From contig JANRKS010000002.1 in the NCBI GenBank assembly GCA_033763315.1, positions 320,001-384,000 on the forward strand: DNA of 64,000 nucleotides, given 5' to 3'. The notes beneath the pieces were generated by a model. That model worked only from the letters and a program-made list of their open reading frames with translations, had not been told where the DNA came from and ran no database searches. The position numbers and the translations under genes are program-made. Numbering within the stretch: position 1 is the first letter of the stretch; each line of letters begins with the position of its first letter. This DNA comes from Deltaproteobacteria bacterium (GTDB taxonomy: Bacteria > Myxococcota_A > Polyangia > Fen-1088). Shown here piece by piece: positions 9,022-20,892 of this stretch.

Positions 9022-11796
9022 ATGCGTTGTCCTAGGTTTAAAAACATTTTGCTTCTGGGCCTTGTGGCCCTTGCGTTTGCCGTGAGCGCGCGACCGGTGC
9101 AAGCCGAACCAGCTCTGCCGGGTGTGGCCCGTTTGCTTGAGGCCGCAGCGCGAAAACGTGTGCCCCTCGCCGTCGCAGCGGAGGCCTTGGCATCCGAACT
9201 ACGCTGCACCCGTTGCCACGCGGGTAACACAACTTTGGAAGTGCCACTGGCGCCGCCCCTGGCAGATGTTGGTACGCGCGTGTCAGCGGCTTATTTGAAG
9301 GCATTTTTGCTGTCACCCAAGTCCTTGAAACCCGGCACGTCGATGCCCGACATGCTAGCCGGCGTGGCGAATCCCCAAGCCGTGGCCGATGATCTGGTGG
9401 CGTATCTGTTGAGCCGTGGTGGCCAGCTGCAAACGGGCGATGATTGGAGCGATTCGTTTAACCGCGACGACGGTGAGGCGTTGTTCAGCAAATTGGGCTG
9501 CGTGGCTTGCCACGGCTCACAGGCCGTTGCGCCTGACGCTGGTGAAACGTTTGTCCCGCTGGGGGCGCTGGCCCGCAAAACCACATTGGGGCAGCTGGCG
9601 GCGTTCCTTCAAGATCCAGCGGCTGTTAGGCCGGGCACGCGCATGCCGAATTTTCGATTGACCGATACAGAGAGCGCGGCCTTGGCGACGTACCTTCTGC
9701 GCGAACAGTTGCCCTCCAGCGCCGCGGAGGCCGCTCGTTTGTTGAAGCCAGGTGTGCGCTACGAATACTACGAAGGCAACGTCCGCGAAGGTCCGCCGGA
9801 CTGGAAGTCGATGACGTTCGTGCGTCGCGGCTTCACCGACACCTTCGCTCTTCCGCCGAAAATACGCGACACCAAGATAGCTTTGCGCTTCGACGCGGTT
9901 CTCAATGTGAAGCGCGCAGGCACTTACACGTTTTTCACAGACTCGAATGATGGTTCTGAGCTTTCGGTCGATAAAAGGTTGGTGGTGAACAACCACGGTT
10001 TTCATGGGTCATTGGAGGCCCATGGAAAGATTGAGCTCCACCCGGGTTTGCATGCGGTTACCGTGCTGTTCTGGCAGGACGAAGGCAGCAAGGGGCTCAA
10101 AGTGTCATGGGAAGGCCCGGGCTTGACGAAGCAGCTGATTCCGGCTGAGTTGTTGTTCGCGGCAGGTTCGGCCGCAATGAAGCCGCTTGGTTGGCAGGCC
10201 AGCCGTGTGGACGCAACGCAAGCGCAGCGAGGCGCCGCGCATTTTGCGCAATTAGGATGCGCCAGTTGCCACGACAAAGCGCAGCCGAACGCAAAACCAT
10301 GGCGTGCACTTGTCCCTGACCGTGGCTGCTTGTCGCCGTCACCCTCGGCCACGGCGCCAAACTTCAACTTATCAAGCGTTCAACGAGATGCTTTGAACAC
10401 GCATGTCAGGACGCGTCCTTCAAAGAGCCCAACCGATGCCAAGGCGCGGGGGCTGCAGTTGTTGGCCACCCACAACTGCGTGGCGTGCCACGAGCGCGAC
10501 GGGTTGGGTGGACCGGCCGCTTCCGTGCAAGCCAATTTCTCCCAAACCGTCGAGGTCGACCTTGGTGAAGAAGGACGTTTGCCGCCCACGTTGACTGGCG
10601 CAGGTGCGAAACTGCGCACGCAAGCCATTCGTCGCATCGTGGGTCACGCCGAGTTGCATGTGCGGCCTTATATGGCCACGCGCATGCCAACCTTTTCAGA
10701 AGCGTTCGCGAACACGCTTTCAAGCACCCTCGCCAAAGCCGATGCAGGCAACGCGTTTACGCCGAAGGTGGCGCCGCACAAGACGCGCGAGGAGGGGCGC
10801 CGGTTGTTGGGATTGTCCTCCGATCCGGCACGCACGGGGTTTGGGTGTGTGAACTGCCATGCGGTGGCCGGACACCCAGGCCCAGGGACACCGGGGCCGG
10901 ATCTCGCGCTGGCCACGCAGCGTCTGAACTACGCGTGGTTCGAGCGATGGCTCGCCGGGCCGCAAGCGGTTCGCCCCAACACGCGCATGCCTGCTTTTTG
11001 GGGTGACGAACCGTTGTTGCCTGATGTGGCTGGTGGCTCCGCGGTTAAGCAACGCGCCGCCATTTGGGCTTACCTTGCCCAAGGTGCCACGCCCTTGCCT
11101 GAGGGCTTGATCGTAAAGAATGCCGCGCGCGAATTGAAGGTGGGGACCGAGCCCATTGTCTATCGTACGTTCGGCAAGCAGATCGGTCCTCGCGCGATCG
11201 TGGTAGGCAACCCGGAACTTGTGCACGTGGCGTTTGACGCGAACGTGGTGCGCATGGCGCAAGCTTGGCGGGGGCGCTTTTGGGATCCGTCGGGCACGTG
11301 GACGGGCCGCGCGGGGTCGTTCCTCGAACCGCTGGGCGATCACGTACTGCCTTTCCCCGTGGGGCCCTCGTTTGCGCGTTTGCCCGAAGCCAGCGCACCG
11401 TGGCCACAACCGAAGCTCGACTCGCGTGAGCTGGGTGGCCGCTTTTTGGGCTACCGTCTCGACGAGCACCGGCGGCCGGTGTTTCGTTACGTCTTGAACG
11501 ACGTGACGATCGCCGAAGCGCACCGCCCGCTTGTGTCTGCGCAAGGCTTTGGTTTGTTGCGCAGCTTCACGTTCGACAAGAGCCCTAAGGATCTGACGTT
11601 TCTCGCTGGCGAGGGCCGCCACATCGAGAAGCAAAGGGCTGGACGCTACATCATTGACGGCCGTTTGACTTTGGCGTTTACGGGCCCGGTCGCGTCAGCT
11701 GCGCGCGTGCGGTCGGCAGGCCACGAAACGCAGCAGTTGGTCTTGGATCTGCCCGCGAACTTGCGGTCGTTGCAAGTGGAGATGTTTTGGCCATGA
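9022..11796 (+). CDS. secreted multiheme c-type cytochrome with PA14 domain
   Basis: Signal peptide; five CxxCH motifs (CTRCH, CVACH, CASCH, CVACH, CVNCH), repeated P..MP distal ligand loops; PA14-like segment (YTFFTDSNDGSELSVD...GLHAVTVLFWQ...LKVSWEGPG). Confidence 0.88.
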   Translation: MRCPRFKNILLLGLVALAFAVSARPVQAEPALPGVARLLEAAARKRVPLAVAAEALASELRCTRCHAGNTTLEVPLAPPLADVGTRVSAAYLKAFLLSPKSLKPGTSMPDMLAGVANPQAVADDLVAYLLSRGGQLQTGDDWSDSFNRDDGEALFSKLGCVACHGSQAVAPDAGETFVPLGALARKTTLGQLAAFLQDPAAVRPGTRMPNFRLTDTESAALATYLLREQLPSSAAEAARLLKPGVRYEYYEGNVREGPPDWKSMTFVRRGFTDTFALPPKIRDTKIALRFDAVLNVKRAGTYTFFTDSNDGSELSVDKRLVVNNHGFHGSLEAHGKIELHPGLHAVTVLFWQDEGSKGLKVSWEGPGLTKQLIPAELLFAAGSAAMKPLGWQASRVDATQAQRGAAHFAQLGCASCHDKAQPNAKPWRALVPDRGCLSPSPSATAPNFNLSSVQRDALNTHVRTRPSKSPTDAKARGLQLLATHNCVACHERDGLGGPAASVQANFSQTVEVDLGEEGRLPPTLTGAGAKLRTQAIRRIVGHAELHVRPYMATRMPTFSEAFANTLSSTLAKADAGNAFTPKVAPHKTREEGRRLLGLSSDPARTGFGCVNCHAVAGHPGPGTPGPDLALATQRLNYAWFERWLAGPQAVRPNTRMPAFWGDEPLLPDVAGGSAVKQRAAIWAYLAQGATPLPEGLIVKNAARELKVGTEPIVYRTFGKQIGPRAIVVGNPELVHVAFDANVVRMAQAWRGRFWDPSGTWTGRAGSFLEPLGDHVLPFPVGPSFARLPEASAPWPQPKLDSRELGGRFLGYRLDEHRRPVFRYVLNDVTIAEAHRPLVSAQGFGLLRSFTFDKSPKDLTFLAGEGRHIEKQRAGRYIIDGRLTLAFTGPVASAARVRSAGHETQQLVLDLPANLRSLQVEMFWP

Positions 11797-13274
11797 ACAT
11801 GAAACAACTGCACGTGCGTTTTATCAGCTCGCTCATGTGGCTATGCGCGGCGTTGATGTTGCCTGGGCTCGTCCACGCAGAGGTCGAAGAAGATTTTTAT
11901 CCCATTACGGCCTTTGAACCCGGCGGCATCGAGCTGGAAGTGTCGGGCTTGACGGTGCTCGCCGATAATCGCCCGCTTGTGGCCACACGCGGCGGCGAAG
12001 TGTTCCTTGTGGAAGGAGCCCACGGAGATCCCAAGGCGGCGAAGTTCAAACCGTTTGCTTTCGGCCTCTCGACACCGCTTGGTCTGCTGGAGCAAAGCGA
12101 CGGCATCTATGTGGCCCAGCGAGGCGAGCTGACGCGGATGAAGGACACCGACGGCGATGGCCGCGCTGATTGGTTTGACACCATCTCGGATCAGTGGGAA
12201 TTGGGCGGCAATTATCACGAATACGCGTTTGGCCCGGTGATAGACAAACAAGGCATGATGTGGGTGACGCTGAACAAGCCGTTTGGTGATCAGCCTTATG
12301 GTGACGTGCCTTGGCGCGGCTGGGCGATGCGCATCGATCCAAAGACAGGCGCCACAACGCCTGTGGCCGCCGGCTTGCGCAGCCCTTCGGGCATCGAAGT
12401 GAGTCCCGCCGGCGACGTATTTTATTCAGACAACCAAGGCGAATGGTGCAACGCCTCGAAACTTTCGCAGCTTGAGCCAGGGGATTTTCACGGGCATCCG
12501 TTTGGTTCACGGTCCGCCAGCTTGCCCCGTTCAACGCTCCACGCGCCGTTGGAAAAGGATCTGCCTGCGGCCGCGTATATGAAGGATCTGTCGCGGACGA
12601 TCCCCAATTTCAAAATGCCAGCCGTGTGGCTGCCCTACGACAAGGCTGGCCAGAGCCCCACCGGCTTTCGTTGGGACACCACGGGCGGAAAATTCGGCCC
12701 CTTCGCGGGCCAAGTGTTCCTGGGCGATCAACATCATGCGTCCCTGCTGCGAATCTCTTTGGAAAAGATCAAAGGGCGTTGGCAAGGCGCGGTCTATCCG
12801 TTCCTCGAAGGCTTTCAAAGCGGGCTTGTGCGCGTGGCGTTTAGCAAAGATGGCGCTTTGTTTGCCGGCATGACGAACGCAGGTTGGGGCGGGCGGGGCA
12901 CGCGGCCCTATGGCTTGGCGCGCGTGAACTGGACGGGCAAAGTGCCGTTTGAGGTCAAGGAGATCAAAGCCACCCCACGTGGTTTCACCGTTGAGTTCAC
13001 GCAACCCGTGAATGAAGCCTCGGCTCGCGCAGCATTGGCCTTCAAAATCAAAAGCTACACGTACCGTTTGCGCAAAGACTACGGTGGACCCGAAGAAGAC
13101 GTCGCCGCCCTCACGGCGCGCGTGGCTTCAATAAGTGGAACGAAAGTGGAATTGTTCGTCGACAACCTTCGCGCAGGTTACGTGCACGAATTCGATCTGG
13201 CGGACGTGCGGTCGCACAGCGGTGGCAAGTTGCTTCACGCCGCCGCTTACTACTCACTCATTCAGATCCCTTAG
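11793..13274 (+). CDS. secreted beta-propeller protein (glucose/sorbosone dehydrogenase-like, PVC-type)
   Basis: Signal peptide; DTDGDGRAD, NYHEYAFG, GLRSPSG, DNQGEW motifs; ATGA overlap with the cytochrome stop. Confidence 0.8.
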   Translation: MNMKQLHVRFISSLMWLCAALMLPGLVHAEVEEDFYPITAFEPGGIELEVSGLTVLADNRPLVATRGGEVFLVEGAHGDPKAAKFKPFAFGLSTPLGLLEQSDGIYVAQRGELTRMKDTDGDGRADWFDTISDQWELGGNYHEYAFGPVIDKQGMMWVTLNKPFGDQPYGDVPWRGWAMRIDPKTGATTPVAAGLRSPSGIEVSPAGDVFYSDNQGEWCNASKLSQLEPGDFHGHPFGSRSASLPRSTLHAPLEKDLPAAAYMKDLSRTIPNFKMPAVWLPYDKAGQSPTGFRWDTTGGKFGPFAGQVFLGDQHHASLLRISLEKIKGRWQGAVYPFLEGFQSGLVRVAFSKDGALFAGMTNAGWGGRGTRPYGLARVNWTGKVPFEVKEIKATPRGFTVEFTQPVNEASARAALAFKIKSYTYRLRKDYGGPEEDVAALTARVASISGTKVELFVDNLRAGYVHEFDLADVRSHSGGKLLHAAAYYSLIQIP

Positions 13275-13744: not shown

Positions 13745-13805
13745 TACGGTCGTCCGTGACTGCTAAAGGATAGCTAAGTTATGGAAAAAGCCCAAGCTGA
13801 GGACT

Positions 13806-13849
13806 TGCCAATTTGCATCGGCAGAAACGCCATCTGAGTCAAATTGGCA
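13806..13849. promoter_or_regulatory. 10-bp perfect inverted repeat (TGCCAATTTG-N24-CAAATTGGCA) in divergent intergenic region
   Basis: Read directly; function (operator, enhancer or hairpin) is inference. Confidence 0.45.
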
Positions 13850-13890
13850 GGAATCGCGGCCCAAAGGCGCTAAAAAGCGTCTCGTTTTCA

Positions 13891-13906
13891 TGGTCTTGCG
13901 TTTGCA
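13891..13906 (+). promoter_or_regulatory. possible sigma-54 -24/-12 promoter (TGGTCTTGCGTTTGCA)
   Basis: GG-N10-GC spacing with TTGCA -12 box; the -24 box deviates from TGGCACG. Confidence 0.3.
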
Positions 13907-13919
13907 CACAAGGTGTTTC

Positions 13920-15686
13920 ATGCGGCGATTGGCTTATATCTGTGTTTTTCTCAGCGTGGTCGGTTTGGGTAGCCCAACCGACATGGCGAAGGCTGCCACC
14001 GAAGGGGCTGAGGCCTTGGTGGAGGAAGACTTCACGTTTACCTTCGACAAGGAGACAGCTGCTGGCGGATACACCGCGCTTGGCAATTCCGACGCCGTCT
14101 TGAACACGCACCTCAATCAATCGCGGTGTCTGTGTGAAGAGAAGTTCCGCATCAACGTGGTTCTGAGCTCGGCTGGCCAGGCGAAACTTGGAAATGACAC
14201 CGTCGTGGGCCAGGTGATGGTTGGCGCCGGGTGCGAAAAGGAAGGTTCGAAGTGCTCAAACGTGGCCGGCGAATTCAAGTTCACTCGCACGGCGGGAACG
14301 CTTACAGCCGAGACGGACGCCAAAAAGTTGTTCACCGCGGTTGCCGGCACGAAGCAGGCCTGCAGCGAAGTCGAAGGTACATTTACGTTTTGGCTGAAGC
14401 TGTTGAAGGACGGCAACACGTTGTCAGCGATGCCATCAAAATCGCTCGACTTTGACTCGAAACCGCCTGAACAACCTTCGATCAAAACCGTCACACCAAG
14501 CAATGGAGCGGCCCGTGTGGAGTGGAATGCGGGCGCAAGCGGATCTTTGGCTTACTATCAGGTCTTGTGTTCACCGAACCCCGCCGACACTTACAGCCCT
14601 GCGTTTACATACTGTCCGGCAGATGCGTCGCAGGCGCTTTATAAGGATCTCAAGTTCTGCAGTGAAAGAGTTTCATCAAGCGCCGCGGACCACCGGGTGC
14701 TGAACCTGGAGAACGAGAAGCTATATGCGCTTTCATTGGTGGCCATCGACAAGAGCGGCAACGTGAGCCCGGTGTCTGCAGACGTGCGGGTCACGCCCGC
14801 GCCTTCGACCAGTTTTCACGATCTATACAAAGAGAACGCGGGACAAGCGGAAGGCGGTTGCCAGATCGGGGCACGTGGTGGAGCGCCCAGCGTTGGGGCA
14901 CTGTGGTTTGCGATGATGGGTTTGTTTGCGGTGTTTCGGCCCTTGAGACGGCACCGAACGAAAGCCGCGCTCTTGCTCTTGGCTTTGGCTTACGGGTGGT
15001 CGCCGACGAACGCCCTGGCCGACACGTTGGGCATCATCGACCCGGCCCCTGCGCATGAACGAGACAAACTTGCGACGAGCGAACGCGGCTACAATCTGAA
15101 TTTGGGTGTTGGATTTTATCGACCGGACGTCGACAGCGAGTTCGGTGGCGACGGACCGTTCACGAAGATCTTTGGCAAAGATGATCATCCTTTGTGGCAA
15201 CTTAGGCTCGAACGCCTGCTGTGGCAGAAGATCGGCACGCTATCCGTGGGCCTGGGCGTCGGCTACTACGGCGTTTATGGCAAGGCGCTCACCAAAGATG
15301 GCGGGAAGAGCGCGGATGAAACGTCGCTGCAAGTTGTGCCCGTCACCGTGGATCTCGGCTACCAATACGATATGTGGGTGCGCCGCGGGTGGGGCTTGAT
15401 GCCGTTCGCTCGCGCTGGGCTCGATCGTGCATTCTGGTTCATGCGCGACGAAGATTCGATTGACGATAAAGGTGGCACAAACGGTTGGCATGCGGCCATC
15501 GGTTTGGCCTTTGCACTAGACGCATTGGATCCAGAATCTGCGCAGCAGTTGGACAGCGAGACAGGCGTCAATCACACGCTCGTCTACGTTGAATACCTTG
15601 TGCAGGATCTTTCAGGGCTGGGGAGCCGCCGACGACTGCAACTTTCCGATTCCATGCTTTCACTAGGCATTTCGCTGCAGATGTGA
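13920..15686 (+). CDS. fusion/polyprotein: Cys-rich FN3 domain + internal MYXO-CTERM + second signal peptide + outer-membrane beta-barrel (MXAN_2561/MXAN_2562-like)
   Basis: N-terminal signal; FN3 features (PSNGAARVEW, LENEKLYALSLVAIDKSGNVS); GGCQIG-TM-RPLRRHR; AALLLLALAYGWSPTNALA; barrel part with YRPDVDSEF, alternating beta-strands, ALDALDPESAQQLD..TGVNHT and terminal LGISLQM; start ATG 13920 after AAGGTG. Confidence 0.82.
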   Translation: MRRLAYICVFLSVVGLGSPTDMAKAATEGAEALVEEDFTFTFDKETAAGGYTALGNSDAVLNTHLNQSRCLCEEKFRINVVLSSAGQAKLGNDTVVGQVMVGAGCEKEGSKCSNVAGEFKFTRTAGTLTAETDAKKLFTAVAGTKQACSEVEGTFTFWLKLLKDGNTLSAMPSKSLDFDSKPPEQPSIKTVTPSNGAARVEWNAGASGSLAYYQVLCSPNPADTYSPAFTYCPADASQALYKDLKFCSERVSSSAADHRVLNLENEKLYALSLVAIDKSGNVSPVSADVRVTPAPSTSFHDLYKENAGQAEGGCQIGARGGAPSVGALWFAMMGLFAVFRPLRRHRTKAALLLLALAYGWSPTNALADTLGIIDPAPAHERDKLATSERGYNLNLGVGFYRPDVDSEFGGDGPFTKIFGKDDHPLWQLRLERLLWQKIGTLSVGLGVGYYGVYGKALTKDGGKSADETSLQVVPVTVDLGYQYDMWVRRGWGLMPFARAGLDRAFWFMRDEDSIDDKGGTNGWHAAIGLAFALDALDPESAQQLDSETGVNHTLVYVEYLVQDLSGLGSRRRLQLSDSMLSLGISLQM

Positions 15687-15789
15687 AAAGCAGCAGGATG
15701 TAAAGAAGGCATCGCCAGTCGCCTTTCCGTTGACCCTCCAGGGTTCAAAACTATACTTGGGAGTCCAGCTTTGCTTGGATGCCCACCGA

Positions 15790-17082
15790 ATGCAGTTCTT
15801 CGCCGCGCGCCCTAAGACCCTTTGTATTGTCCTGGTTCTGGCGTGGGCGGCGAACCCACGGACGTCTTGGGCGCGAAAGATTGGCATCGGCGTGACTGAG
15901 TGTGGTGGATGCCACGAAGGTGGAAACAAAGCCACCGTAACGTTGACACCAACGAATACCAAACCAGCCTTGGGAGACACGGTTCGTTTTAATGTCTCCA
16001 TCGAGGCACCCAACGTCAAGGGCGGTGGCATGTACTTGGAAGCCTTGTCCACGGAGCTTGAGCCCAAGCCGCTCGGCACGTTGACCTTGGTGGCCGGGCA
16101 GGGGTTGCGAACGGAGGGTCAAGGCGTGACCCACACCATGCCGAAGCTTGCCGTGGGCGGGAAGGTCACGTTTGCCGTTGATTGGAAGGCGCCAGCGTCT
16201 AAGGCGGGCGCGGTGATCAACGTTTCTGGCATCGCCGCAAATCTAAGCGACACTGACGTCGGAGACGCCTTCGGCAAAGCCAGCGCGACACTTGCCGTGG
16301 GCTGCGACGGCGGTACGGACCATTGGGTTGATTTTGACGGCGATGGATTCGGGTCAAATGACGCGGCACCGGTCAAAGCGTGTGCTCCCGGCCCGGGCCT
16401 CGCGGCGAAAAAAGGTGATTGCAACGACACCGAAAAGAACGTTTATCCAGGCGTTTCAGAATCGTGCAACAACGTGGATGACAACTGCGATGGCTCCACC
16501 GACGAGGGGTTTCCGCAGATGGCGCTTTATACCGACGTTGACGGTGATGGCTTCGGTGCAGGCACGGAGATGAAGATGGGCTGTGGGGCCACGTTTGGTT
16601 GGGGGATCGGCAACAAAGACTGCAACGACAGCGTCAAGGCCATCAATCCGGGCGCGATGGAGATGTGCAACGGCAAGGATGATGATTGCAACGGCCGGAT
16701 TGACAACGGCGTTCTGCCCACCTGTGGCAAGGGTTTGTGCCTCCGAGAAGCGCCCAGCTGTGACAGCGCAAACTTGTGCAAGCCGGGCGCTCCGAAAGCA
16801 GAAAAGTGCAACCTGCTCGACGATGACTGTGACGGCGAGGTGGACAACGGCGCCGACATCTGCGGCGCGGGGCAAGCTTGTGTCGAAGGCAAATGTTCGG
16901 ACAGTGGCTCTGGTGGCGCGGGCGGCGAAGGCGATTCAGGTGGCGCTGGTGGTGGCTCGAACGACAACAACAATGATGGTGGCGGCGGCTGTCAAATCGG
17001 AACCGGTGGCACACCCCCTGCCGCTGTGTTGTTCACCTTGGCGTTGGGCGCTTTCATTATCGGTCGCCGCCGCAGGCGCTGA
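15790..17082 (+). CDS. MYXO-CTERM-anchored surface protein: CxxCH/Reeler-like domain + repeated D-x-D-G-D-G / DCND Cys-rich metal-binding motifs
   Basis: Signal peptide, CGGCH, repeats DFDGDGFG/DVDGDGFG..GDCND..E.CN..DD.CDG..D, Gly linker, C-terminal GGCQIG..AVLFTLALGAFII-RRRRR. Confidence 0.85.
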   Translation: MQFFAARPKTLCIVLVLAWAANPRTSWARKIGIGVTECGGCHEGGNKATVTLTPTNTKPALGDTVRFNVSIEAPNVKGGGMYLEALSTELEPKPLGTLTLVAGQGLRTEGQGVTHTMPKLAVGGKVTFAVDWKAPASKAGAVINVSGIAANLSDTDVGDAFGKASATLAVGCDGGTDHWVDFDGDGFGSNDAAPVKACAPGPGLAAKKGDCNDTEKNVYPGVSESCNNVDDNCDGSTDEGFPQMALYTDVDGDGFGAGTEMKMGCGATFGWGIGNKDCNDSVKAINPGAMEMCNGKDDDCNGRIDNGVLPTCGKGLCLREAPSCDSANLCKPGAPKAEKCNLLDDDCDGEVDNGADICGAGQACVEGKCSDSGSGGAGGEGDSGGAGGGSNDNNNDGGGGCQIGTGGTPPAAVLFTLALGAFIIGRRRRR

Positions 17083-19841: not shown

Positions 19842-20453
19842 CTAGGGCGTATCGAACTGCACTTCAACGCCTACCAGGGCGTCCAAGCTGGCGAGCCCGC
19901 GCGACAACCCGGAGGCCTTCTCGTGGGATGCGAAGCCGACGGTGGTGCCAATCTCCAAACCGAAGCCGAGCCAATCGTATAGGTAATAGCGCCCTGAAAT
20001 TGAGCCGCGCACGCCCAGGCCCATCGCTGCGCTGTACTGGTCAGGAAACACAAACAAGAAGCCGCCAGCCAACGTACCCGTGAGGATCACAGGCACGTCC
20101 ATGCGCAACCGATACGAAAGGCCGCCCATCGTGTCGGCCATCTGCCCGCATGTGGCGCACGCCCGACCATCCACGGGCTTGTCCGAACCATCCACAAAAC
20201 CCACGTGCAAGTTGAGCCACAAACTGCCAACAAGTTCGTACTCAAAGGCGGCTTTCAGTTTCAGGCCGCCGATGCCGCCACCCGAAGCGGCATGAAAGCC
20301 ACCCGCCAGCTGCAGCGCGTTCGGCTTAAGGAACGGGTGTGGTCCGCGGAGCAAGCCCCCATCCGCCGGTCCGGTGGCTGCTGCGGCTGCACTCGAAAGC
20401 CCAAGCCATGCCAAGGCCGCGAAGGTAACAAAAGCCTGCGTGTAAGCGCGCAC
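19842..20453 (-). CDS. small outer-membrane beta-barrel protein
   Basis: GTG start with signal peptide (AALAWLGLSSAAAAA), about 8 amphipathic strands, RYYLYDWLGFGLE, C-terminal VGVEVQF. Confidence 0.7.
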   Translation of the reverse strand: MRAYTQAFVTFAALAWLGLSSAAAAATGPADGGLLRGPHPFLKPNALQLAGGFHAASGGGIGGLKLKAAFEYELVGSLWLNLHVGFVDGSDKPVDGRACATCGQMADTMGGLSYRLRMDVPVILTGTLAGGFLFVFPDQYSAAMGLGVRGSISGRYYLYDWLGFGLEIGTTVGFASHEKASGLSRGLASLDALVGVEVQFDTP

Positions 20454-20511
20454 GGGCGCAGAATAGCTGAAAGTCACCCAACGAGCGTATTTTGCGGCAG
20501 AATCGGCGCGC

Positions 20512-20892
20512 ATGACTTCGCGTCGACAACGTGCCCATTCGAACACGTCCCGCCTTTGGGGGCGCAGGGCGATGGTGGTTGCCATGTGTGCATCGTTTGT
20601 GGCCTGCAGCGCGCCTTACCGGGGAGCCAAATTCGTGGGTGGCGTGAGCGGTGTGTTGGCCGCGGCGGGAGGCACGGCGTGGGTGGTGGGAGAGAACACC
20701 GATTCGAGCGGACTCATTGTGCCCGGCGTGATCGCAACCATCATCGGTGCCGTGGGCATGGCGACAGCGGCGATGGTGGTGGCGGCGCAAAGCAGTTGCG
20801 CTGCCGACGCCGAATGCTTGGACGGCTATCAATGTCGCGAGTTACCGGCGCCTGCGGGGCAGGAGCCATACAGCCAATGCGTGCCCCGCTAG
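20512..20892 (+). CDS. putative lipoprotein with Gly-rich hydrophobic hairpin and Cys-rich C-terminus
   Basis: Lipobox-like FVAC; two Gly/Ala-rich hydrophobic helices; C-x5-C-x5-C...C tail. Confidence 0.6.
   Translation: MTSRRQRAHSNTSRLWGRRAMVVAMCASFVACSAPYRGAKFVGGVSGVLAAAGGTAWVVGENTDSSGLIVPGVIATIIGAVGMATAAMVVAAQSSCAADAECLDGYQCRELPAPAGQEPYSQCVPR

Follow-up and report, generated by a model that had tools for sequence, protein, structure and literature searches.

A myxobacterial gene joining an SgmI-like surface protein to an MXAN_2562-family beta-barrel through an internal MYXO-CTERM-like tag and a second signal-like sequence: a recurrent natural fusion with two predicted cleavages

A sorting tag of a kind normally found at the C-terminus, followed without a stop codon by a second signal-like sequence and an outer membrane beta-barrel, raises the question of whether one gene can supply two separate envelope proteins. 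Such an arrangement is found in a gene at 13920..15686 (+ strand, stop included) of a 64,000-nucleotide stretch of DNA from a Deltaproteobacteria bacterium (GCA_033763315.1, contig JANRKS010000002.1, positions 320,001 to 384,000), the whole of which we call the window. Our best reading is that the gene arose by natural in-frame fusion of a pair that is translationally coupled elsewhere, a MYXO-CTERM surface protein of the SgmI/MXAN_2561 type and a barrel of the MXAN_2562 type, and that its product would enter the inner membrane via Sec as a hairpin, to be cut by signal peptidase I and a myxosortase into a surface lipoprotein and a barrel. For the fusion and the double cleavage taken together we estimate a probability of roughly 0.72.

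The reading frame runs from 13890 to 15686 on the + strand without a stop (598 codons, from the listing of open reading frames (ORFs) and the translation of the window). The ATG at 13920, where the 588-residue database form of the protein (P0002) begins, is M11 of the 598-residue frame that opens at the upstream in-frame ATG at 13890, and residue numbers throughout refer to this longer frame. A scan for promoters and terminators inside the gene gave no signal exceeding shuffled controls. The N-terminal signal peptide, recognized by eye in the translation, spans M11-A35 (13920..13994) and ends in MAKA before a further A; the AlphaFold2 (AF2) model has a helix at residues 6-24. Next comes an exported part, residues 36-321 (13995..14852), composed of a Cys-bearing domain and FN3-like domains. 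It is modeled mostly with a predicted local distance difference test score (pLDDT) above 90, its top Foldseek matches are tandem FN3 domains, and together with the GGC tag that follows it has the pattern of FN3 domains and Cys tag seen in the MXAN_2561 family. The NCBIfam equivalog model of this family (MXAN_2561_fam, NF045522) covers residues 141-348 at 86.3 bits. As this is below the cut-off of 150, the N-terminal part is by this model a relative of MXAN_2561, rather than its equivalog or orthologue.

The assignment of the C-terminal part, residues 378-598 (15021..15683), is firmer. NCBIfam MXAN_2562_fam (NF040596) matches residues 402-597 at 172.3 bits, above its cut-off of 100, and the C-terminal piece scanned alone scores 175 bits; Pfam OMP_b-brl matches residues 395-544. 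The AF2 model is a barrel of eight strands (pLDDT 88), which Foldseek relates to the OmpA transmembrane (TM) domain, OmpW and OmpX (E 7e-8 to 1e-5, TMt 0.6-0.7, identity 8-14%), while no OmpA-family match was found in the fused protein with Pfam and NCBIfam at E<=1. A small barrel with a signal peptide is the pattern of the MXAN_2562 family; here the signal, as judged by eye and from conservation, is internal instead of N-terminal. A further match of the barrel, at 41-44 bits (cut-off 370), is to the 356-position model of the Bd0486 family, over positions 171-354; members of this family seem to bear an additional N-terminal half before a related barrel.

Between the two parts lies a compact junction. 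A conserved segment before the Cys, residues 304-324 (14799..14861), includes a helix at 309-315 with Y313, and runs into the tag G322-R356 (14853..14957). The tag has the tripartite build of MYXO-CTERM: G322-G323-C324 at 14853-14861 (C324 at 14859-14861), a hydrophobic helix at about 330-349, and the basic cluster RPLRRHR. A short cytoplasmic Arg/Lys loop, RPLRRHRTK (residues 350-358, 14937..14963), would be common to this anchor and to the signal-like sequence behind it (residues 359-377, 14964..15020), which comprises a second h-region, AALLLLALAYGW (residues 359-370), and a c-region, SPTNALA, ending A375-L-A377 at nucleotide 15020. Read as RRHRTK, AALLLLALAYGW and SPTNALA before D, this stretch has the positive n-region, h-region and small residues at -3 and -1 of a signal peptide, and the mature barrel is predicted to start as DTLGIIDP with D378, from nucleotide 15021. 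In the AF2 model the junction consists of helices 335-354 and 356-369 and a disordered stretch, 371-393, before the eight-stranded barrel; the predicted template modeling score (pTM) of the whole chain is 0.76.

The original prediction, made by a model from the letters of the window, had described the uninterrupted frame from 13920, the N-terminal signal peptide with a Cys-rich/FN3 domain, a second signal with an A-x-A site at about 15020 and a beta-barrel beyond it, and all of these are borne out by translation, family models and predicted structure. Its coordinates are correct as well, including those of the in-frame ATG at 14913 (M342) and TTG at 14943 (L352). The scan of hidden Markov models along the frame that it called for returned the MXAN_2561_fam and MXAN_2562_fam matches. 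Its placement of a MYXO-CTERM tag at about 14853-14960 stands as regards the tripartite build and the Cys, and falls short on two formal counts: excised as residues 310-356 the tag scores 19.2 bits against TIGR03901 (E 0.0012; 16.7 bits for a longer piece), 0.8 bit below the cut-off of 20, and it is not C-terminal, as 242 in-frame residues follow. TIGR03901 was not reported for the fused protein in the whole-protein NCBIfam scan. The next gene (15730-17082), with whose end the tag had been compared, does terminate in a MYXO-CTERM that passes the cut-off, at 25.5 bits.

Conservation argues that the junction matters to the organisms that carry it. When 71 fused proteins with 23-65% identity to the window protein are aligned, C324 is invariant (71/71), as are C115 and C158 of the exported part, and conservation is at least 90% at Y313, G317, G318, R353, A375 and A377. 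Junction statistics were drawn from 123 fused proteins. In 120 of 122, the 30 residues ahead of the first helix include a Cys, mostly within GGC, GYC or GFC, and about 120 fused homologues retain the whole succession of Cys tag, TM helix, R/K loop and signal-like h-region. The two hydrophobic runs are separated by a loop of median length 8 residues (interquartile range 6-12), with a median of 5 Arg plus Lys and 0 Asp plus Glu, and the net charge of this loop is at least +2 in 119/120. The proposal that one Arg cluster serves both as the stop of the anchor and as the n-region of the second signal fits such a short, purely basic loop. An A-x-A motif follows the last hydrophobic core in 71/123 fused proteins, compared with 35/53 N-terminal signals of split barrels and 27/122 after the first helix, which served as a control; the internal signals of the fused proteins prefer ARAQ, AQAQ and AHAQ, as do the signal peptides of the split barrels. 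Judged from these alignments, the junction is under selection, its pattern being far beyond chance.

The fused layout occurs commonly among uncultured myxobacteria, and entire families are fixed for it; it is neither an artefact nor a private mutation. A 6019-nucleotide contig from a different study is colinear with the window over 13800-15744, with 178 substitutions, no gaps and about 91% identity, and as there is no gap, this relative shares the frame; 40 of the 178 differences are listed, and a stop arising by substitution there remains formally possible. A search of sequencing runs listed two DNA runs with small shares of the locus, and X1 gave pieces of only 151 nucleotides. Fused homologues at 65% and 43% identity are present in the protein database, and a phmmer search of 1.84 billion representatives gave 1591 matches at E<=0.001, of which the best 150 are mostly 500-750 residues long with alignments that span the junction. 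Among 193 classified barrel-bearing rows (145 database proteins and 48 genomic loci, about 10 of them assigned by eye), the fused forms number 124 with a Cys tag and 16 with a CFI-box-CTERM tag, and the remaining 53 are split; this sample is skewed towards fused forms because the query itself is fused. In the genomes of relatives, a Cys-tag fused copy is present in 12 of 41, and a thirteenth (G031) has a fused copy with a CFI-box tag; five of these genomes, including that of the window, have a split copy in addition. Across the phylum, 122 of 251 evenly drawn genomes have a match at E<=1e-15, and at least 39 have a single stop-free match running from before residue 310 to past residue 570, a criterion that makes 39 a lower bound. 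All 22 genomes of family f28 have such a junction-spanning match, as do eight genomes of family f25, which are within the 39. Thus, the survey of orthologues that the original prediction had proposed finds that relatives are by no means all split. Its premise that anchored proteins and their barrels are encoded by separate genes holds for the pair in Myxococcus xanthus, and fails for this pair at large, for which fusion is common.

Two side observations concern single partners in the genome of the window. On contig C20 (L051, minus strand) there is an SgmI-like protein with a terminal MYXO-CTERM and no adjoining barrel gene, and a barrel of the MXAN_2562 type, complete with a signal peptide of its own, occurs as an orphan on contig C35 (L028:2332-3147).

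The relation between the fused and split forms can be read from the junction of the split relatives, in which the anchored gene stops right behind the Arg cluster and the barrel gene opens with a signal peptide of its own. Stop and start overlap as NTGA (ATGA or GTGA) in 23 of 26 split loci, the deviating ones being L016, L033 and L038 (two exceptions and one 8-nucleotide overlap). Because of this overlap, a 1-base insertion or a 2-base deletion just upstream would join the frames with all signals kept. An IQ-TREE phylogeny of the barrel domain from 48 loci requires at least seven changes of state, three of them forced by starred branches, and in one family a fused and a split copy (L034 and L040) are sisters at support 99. 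A FastTree phylogeny of the 193 rows gives 33 changes of state, 13-16 of them forced. Six unclear rows (L045, L046, P0072, P0085, P0104 and P0118) were left out of the trees, as was P0002, a duplicate of the window protein. The window gene belongs to a fused lineage of eight loci from six genomes of its family (support 81), while split paralogues form separate clades. On the evidence of these trees, the two forms interconvert, and from this free passage we argue that both would yield the same mature products. A remnant of NTGA is present in the loops of only 2 of 16 fused loci, which suggests that most of the fusions are old. The two are L034 and the window gene, in which TTGA at 14943-14946 contains an in-frame TTG whose last two bases form with the following A an out-of-frame TGA, resembling the overlap of the split relatives. 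As two in 16 is about what is expected by chance, this TTGA is not evidence for a recent fusion.

If the two products are separated, do they meet again? Structure prediction supports binding of the N-terminal part to the barrel. When the mature N-terminal part (residues 36-324) was co-folded with the barrel (residues 378-598), the interface score ipSAE reached 0.70, and the highest score among three controls was 0.38. Of 80 solved complexes, 58 attained that mark, as did 2 of 110 mismatched pairs; these counts are rough, as our own alignment was used. The runs of the complex share at least 92% of their contacts, and the partner has a pLDDT of at least 79. In the predicted contacts, residues 304-324, that is, the conserved helix and the Gly-rich stretch before the Cys, face barrel segments 414-428, 464-480, 518-529 and 580-584. 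Both ends of such outer membrane barrels face the periplasm, and with the order and parity of the strands this makes the contacted segments the extracellular loops. A chain with residue 324 outside the cell and residue 378 in the periplasm must be cut, and the docking model therefore agrees with processing. The DFYxxY(R/K) motif within the docking segment precedes the tag in split relatives too.

The sequence of events that we propose would begin with the N-terminal signal peptide, which would start Sec export of the FN3-like part. The tag helix at about 330-349 would then halt transfer, leaving the Arg cluster in the cytoplasm, and the hydrophobic stretch 359-370 would act as an internal signal at which export resumes, giving a two-helix hairpin in the inner membrane. 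Signal peptidase I would cleave behind A375-L-A377 and free the barrel for insertion by the BAM machinery. C324 would be modified, and a protease of the myxosortase family would cleave behind it and release the N-terminal part to the surface, as is proposed for other MYXO-CTERM proteins. The products would reunite at the outer membrane, where the segment before C324 would dock on the barrel's extracellular loops. Being fused would thereby fix co-expression and a 1:1 supply of the two proteins, and this form would otherwise be functionally equivalent to the split one.

The genome contains a candidate for the second protease. A CPBP gene of the myxosortase family lies on the same contig about 65 kb past the end of the window (G000:C2:448775-449602, L058:1006-1833), and matches the core-domain model Mrt_core (NF040914) at 134 bits, with a cut-off of 100. 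All of the subtype models remain below their cut-offs: MrtP at 178.8 (250), MrtC at 143.2 (195) and MrtX at 128.9 (180) bits. Since even the best of these scores, that of MrtP, falls short, the protease may belong to a myxosortase subtype not yet described. Six terminal MYXO-CTERM matches above the cut-off are present in the same genome. When a FLAG epitope follows the tag of TraA in M. xanthus, it is removed by MrtX (PMC11980579, available in part), and a C-terminal extension of the tag can thus be tolerated; the authors of that paper also propose processing of the internal tag of MXAN_5598.

Several points weigh against our interpretation. The N-terminal part does not reach the MXAN_2561_fam equivalog cut-off (86.3 versus 150 bits), and the internal tag narrowly misses that of TIGR03901 (19.2 versus 20 bits), coming this close solely when excised. 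The crude A-x-A rule is satisfied by only 71 of 123 fused proteins, and the internal signal was judged by eye and from conservation. In the docking analysis, the control in which chain 1 was replaced scored 0.38, and the pass depends on the naturally paired alignment. The myxosortase homologue passes the core-domain model only, and not those of MrtP, MrtC or MrtX. That a myxosortase would accept a tag ahead of a second membrane helix is a hypothetical step. A search of sequencing runs listed no RNA run containing the locus. All of the comparative evidence fits the original prediction, in which myxosortase and signal peptidase I cut the hairpin; the two cleavages themselves are inferred.

One could suppose that signal peptidase I is the sole cutter, the Cys tag being an unprocessed relic, so that the N-terminal part stays in the periplasm, held by the hairpin in the inner membrane. 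The sub-threshold score of the tag, and the hypothetical nature of its processing ahead of a second membrane helix, are in keeping with this. However, C324 is invariant in all 71 aligned fused proteins, G317 and G318 are conserved in at least 90% of them, and the Cys precedes the first helix in 120/122; such conservation is difficult to account for unless processing is selected for. The N-terminal part is predicted to dock on the barrel from the extracellular side, and MrtX tolerates a C-terminal extension of TraA (PMC11980579, in its available part); both points also speak against this explanation, which we consider unlikely.

A further explanation is that two genes are nested in one frame: the barrel would be made mainly by independent internal initiation, for example at TTG 14943, to give M-RRHRTK-AALLLL...ALA before D, with the full-length chain as a by-product. 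In favor of this, the TTG stands directly before the Arg cluster, TTGA resembles the NTGA overlap of the split relatives, and 12 of 16 fused loci have some in-frame ATG, GTG or TTG in the loop region. Yet the upstream frame has no stop, so that the fused chain is made regardless, and no Shine-Dalgarno-like motif precedes either 14913 or 14943. Among the 16 fused loci such a motif was found in one only, the mis-parsed L029, and none is credible; the NTGA remnant is retained in just two. Four of the 16 lack any in-frame ATG, GTG or TTG in the stretch from the first helix to the h-region, so that separate initiation is not a general route to the barrel, and it is very unlikely to be the principal one here.

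It is less probable again that the chain stays whole, either as an inner-membrane hairpin tethered to a barrel in the outer membrane or as an autotransporter-like passenger with its barrel. A passenger-like N-terminal part before a C-terminal barrel is superficially like type V secretion, and the whole chain is modeled with a pTM of 0.76. Against this, merely 25-30 or so disordered residues (371-400) are available between the second helix and the first strand, A375 and A377 are conserved, and split forms with separate signal peptides interleave with fused forms on the tree. As for a passenger, an eight-stranded barrel of the OmpA/OmpX type is too narrow for a folded array of FN3 domains to pass. 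Finally, in a 40-contig draft genome one might suspect that two genes were joined through an error of sequencing or assembly, or accidentally by an inactivating mutation private to this genome. This is refuted for practical purposes by the independent contig at about 91% identity, which has no indel across the whole gene, and by the retention of the junction in many genera at 23-65% identity.

The preferred reading, of a hairpin cut twice, may have a wider scope. In the CFI-box class of fused proteins (16 rows, for example P0105, P0036 and L049:737-3160 of G031), an internal CFI-box-CTERM (NF041770, 72-85 bits, cut-off 40) replaces the MYXO-CTERM tag, and behind it come an Arg cluster, a signal-like stretch and a barrel of the MXAN_2562 family. 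Because either MYXO-CTERM or CFI-box-CTERM can precede the same barrel, one may speculate that Myxococcota have a general strategy of envelope polyproteins, in which an internal tripartite tag works as long as a signal peptide follows directly, and two different membrane proteases produce from one chain a lipoprotein for the surface together with the barrel by which it is held. We put this forward tentatively, and as possible rather than probable.

Other genes of the window are noted here as observations in their own right. The next gene, 15730-17082 (+), encodes a choice-of-anchor V domain and three MopE-type metal-binding motifs before its terminal MYXO-CTERM, and there is a promoter-like site at 15730-15757. 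Upstream, 9022-11796 (+) encodes a 924-residue protein in whose translation a signal peptide and five CxxCH motifs are seen, and 11787-13274 (+), which overlaps it by 10 nucleotides, a 495-residue exported protein. On the opposite strand, 19842-20585 (-) is a 247-residue ORF with a hydrophobic N-terminal stretch and no match in Pfam or NCBIfam at E<=1.

To our knowledge, MYXO-CTERM sorting has been demonstrated experimentally for terminal tags only. The fused pair therefore offers a test case for the cutting of internal tags by myxosortase, and for the sharing of one hairpin between signal peptidase I and a sorting protease. For the barrels of the MXAN_2562 family, which are unstudied, the docking models suggest a role, namely the holding of an adhesin by its C-terminal helix at the cell surface. 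Should this be true, the helix before the Cys would be a docking element, and an SgmI-type adhesin with its holdfast barrel would constitute a so far undescribed two-part module for surface display; the repeated fusion and fission of the pair would then be a natural experiment on the importance of 1:1 supply. There is also a consequence for annotation: models that expect the tag at the C-terminus miss fused proteins, and those described here carry the label 'hypothetical'.

In the literature search we found no report of a fusion in the SgmI/MXAN_2562 family, of its second signal peptide or of its breadth, nor of the NTGA route, the CFI-box variant or the docking prediction, and no paper on 'CFI-box'. 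Polyproteins with internal signals are known from other systems. FbcH of Bradyrhizobium is reportedly a polyprotein with an internal signal peptide (the search gave no fbcH paper), and viral envelope polyproteins, such as bunyavirus Gn/Gc, have internal signal peptides as well. The likeness is that signal peptidase divides a single chain, which has an internal signal after a membrane segment, into two proteins of the membrane or envelope. The difference is that here the same hairpin is expected to be a substrate of a second protease as well, the myxosortase, and that the products would travel to the outer membrane and the surface. As to the barrel, its predicted eight-stranded fold is that of the OmpA TM domain, OmpW, OmpX, Ail and NspA, from which it differs in its low identity (8-14%), in the helices that its loop 1 and one of its periplasmic turns contain, and in having a predicted protein partner.

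The nearest counterparts are in M. xanthus. SgmI (MXAN_2561) and MXAN_2562 belong to the same domain families, an FN3-containing MYXO-CTERM protein followed by a small outer membrane barrel, and are adjacent and apparently co-transcribed, with similar fitness profiles of their insertion mutants (bioRxiv 10.64898/2026.08.28.747804, available in part). They are two genes there and one ORF here, and the N-terminal part of the latter is below the equivalog cut-off. TraA and TraB, whose ORFs overlap as do those of the split pairs of this family, are a second adhesin and barrel of this kind (PMC11980579). For MXAN_5598, an internal MYXO-CTERM with a barrel behind it has already been put forward in print, where the protein is described as TraA plus TraB in one ORF: an internal tag precedes an outer membrane barrel and an OmpA domain, so that, as here, an anchored adhesin is fused to its barrel partner, and the tag is proposed still to be processed (PMC11980579). 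The names MXAN_2561, MXAN_2562 and MXAN_5598 are absent from the text of one supplement to that paper. Compared by its published description rather than by sequence, MXAN_5598 is of another family and has an OmpA domain that is lacking here, and the available text mentions neither a second internal signal peptide nor a wide distribution. Internal tags are called rare in that paper, with one example; in the SgmI/MXAN_2562 pair, the internal tag is part of a common and long-kept architecture.

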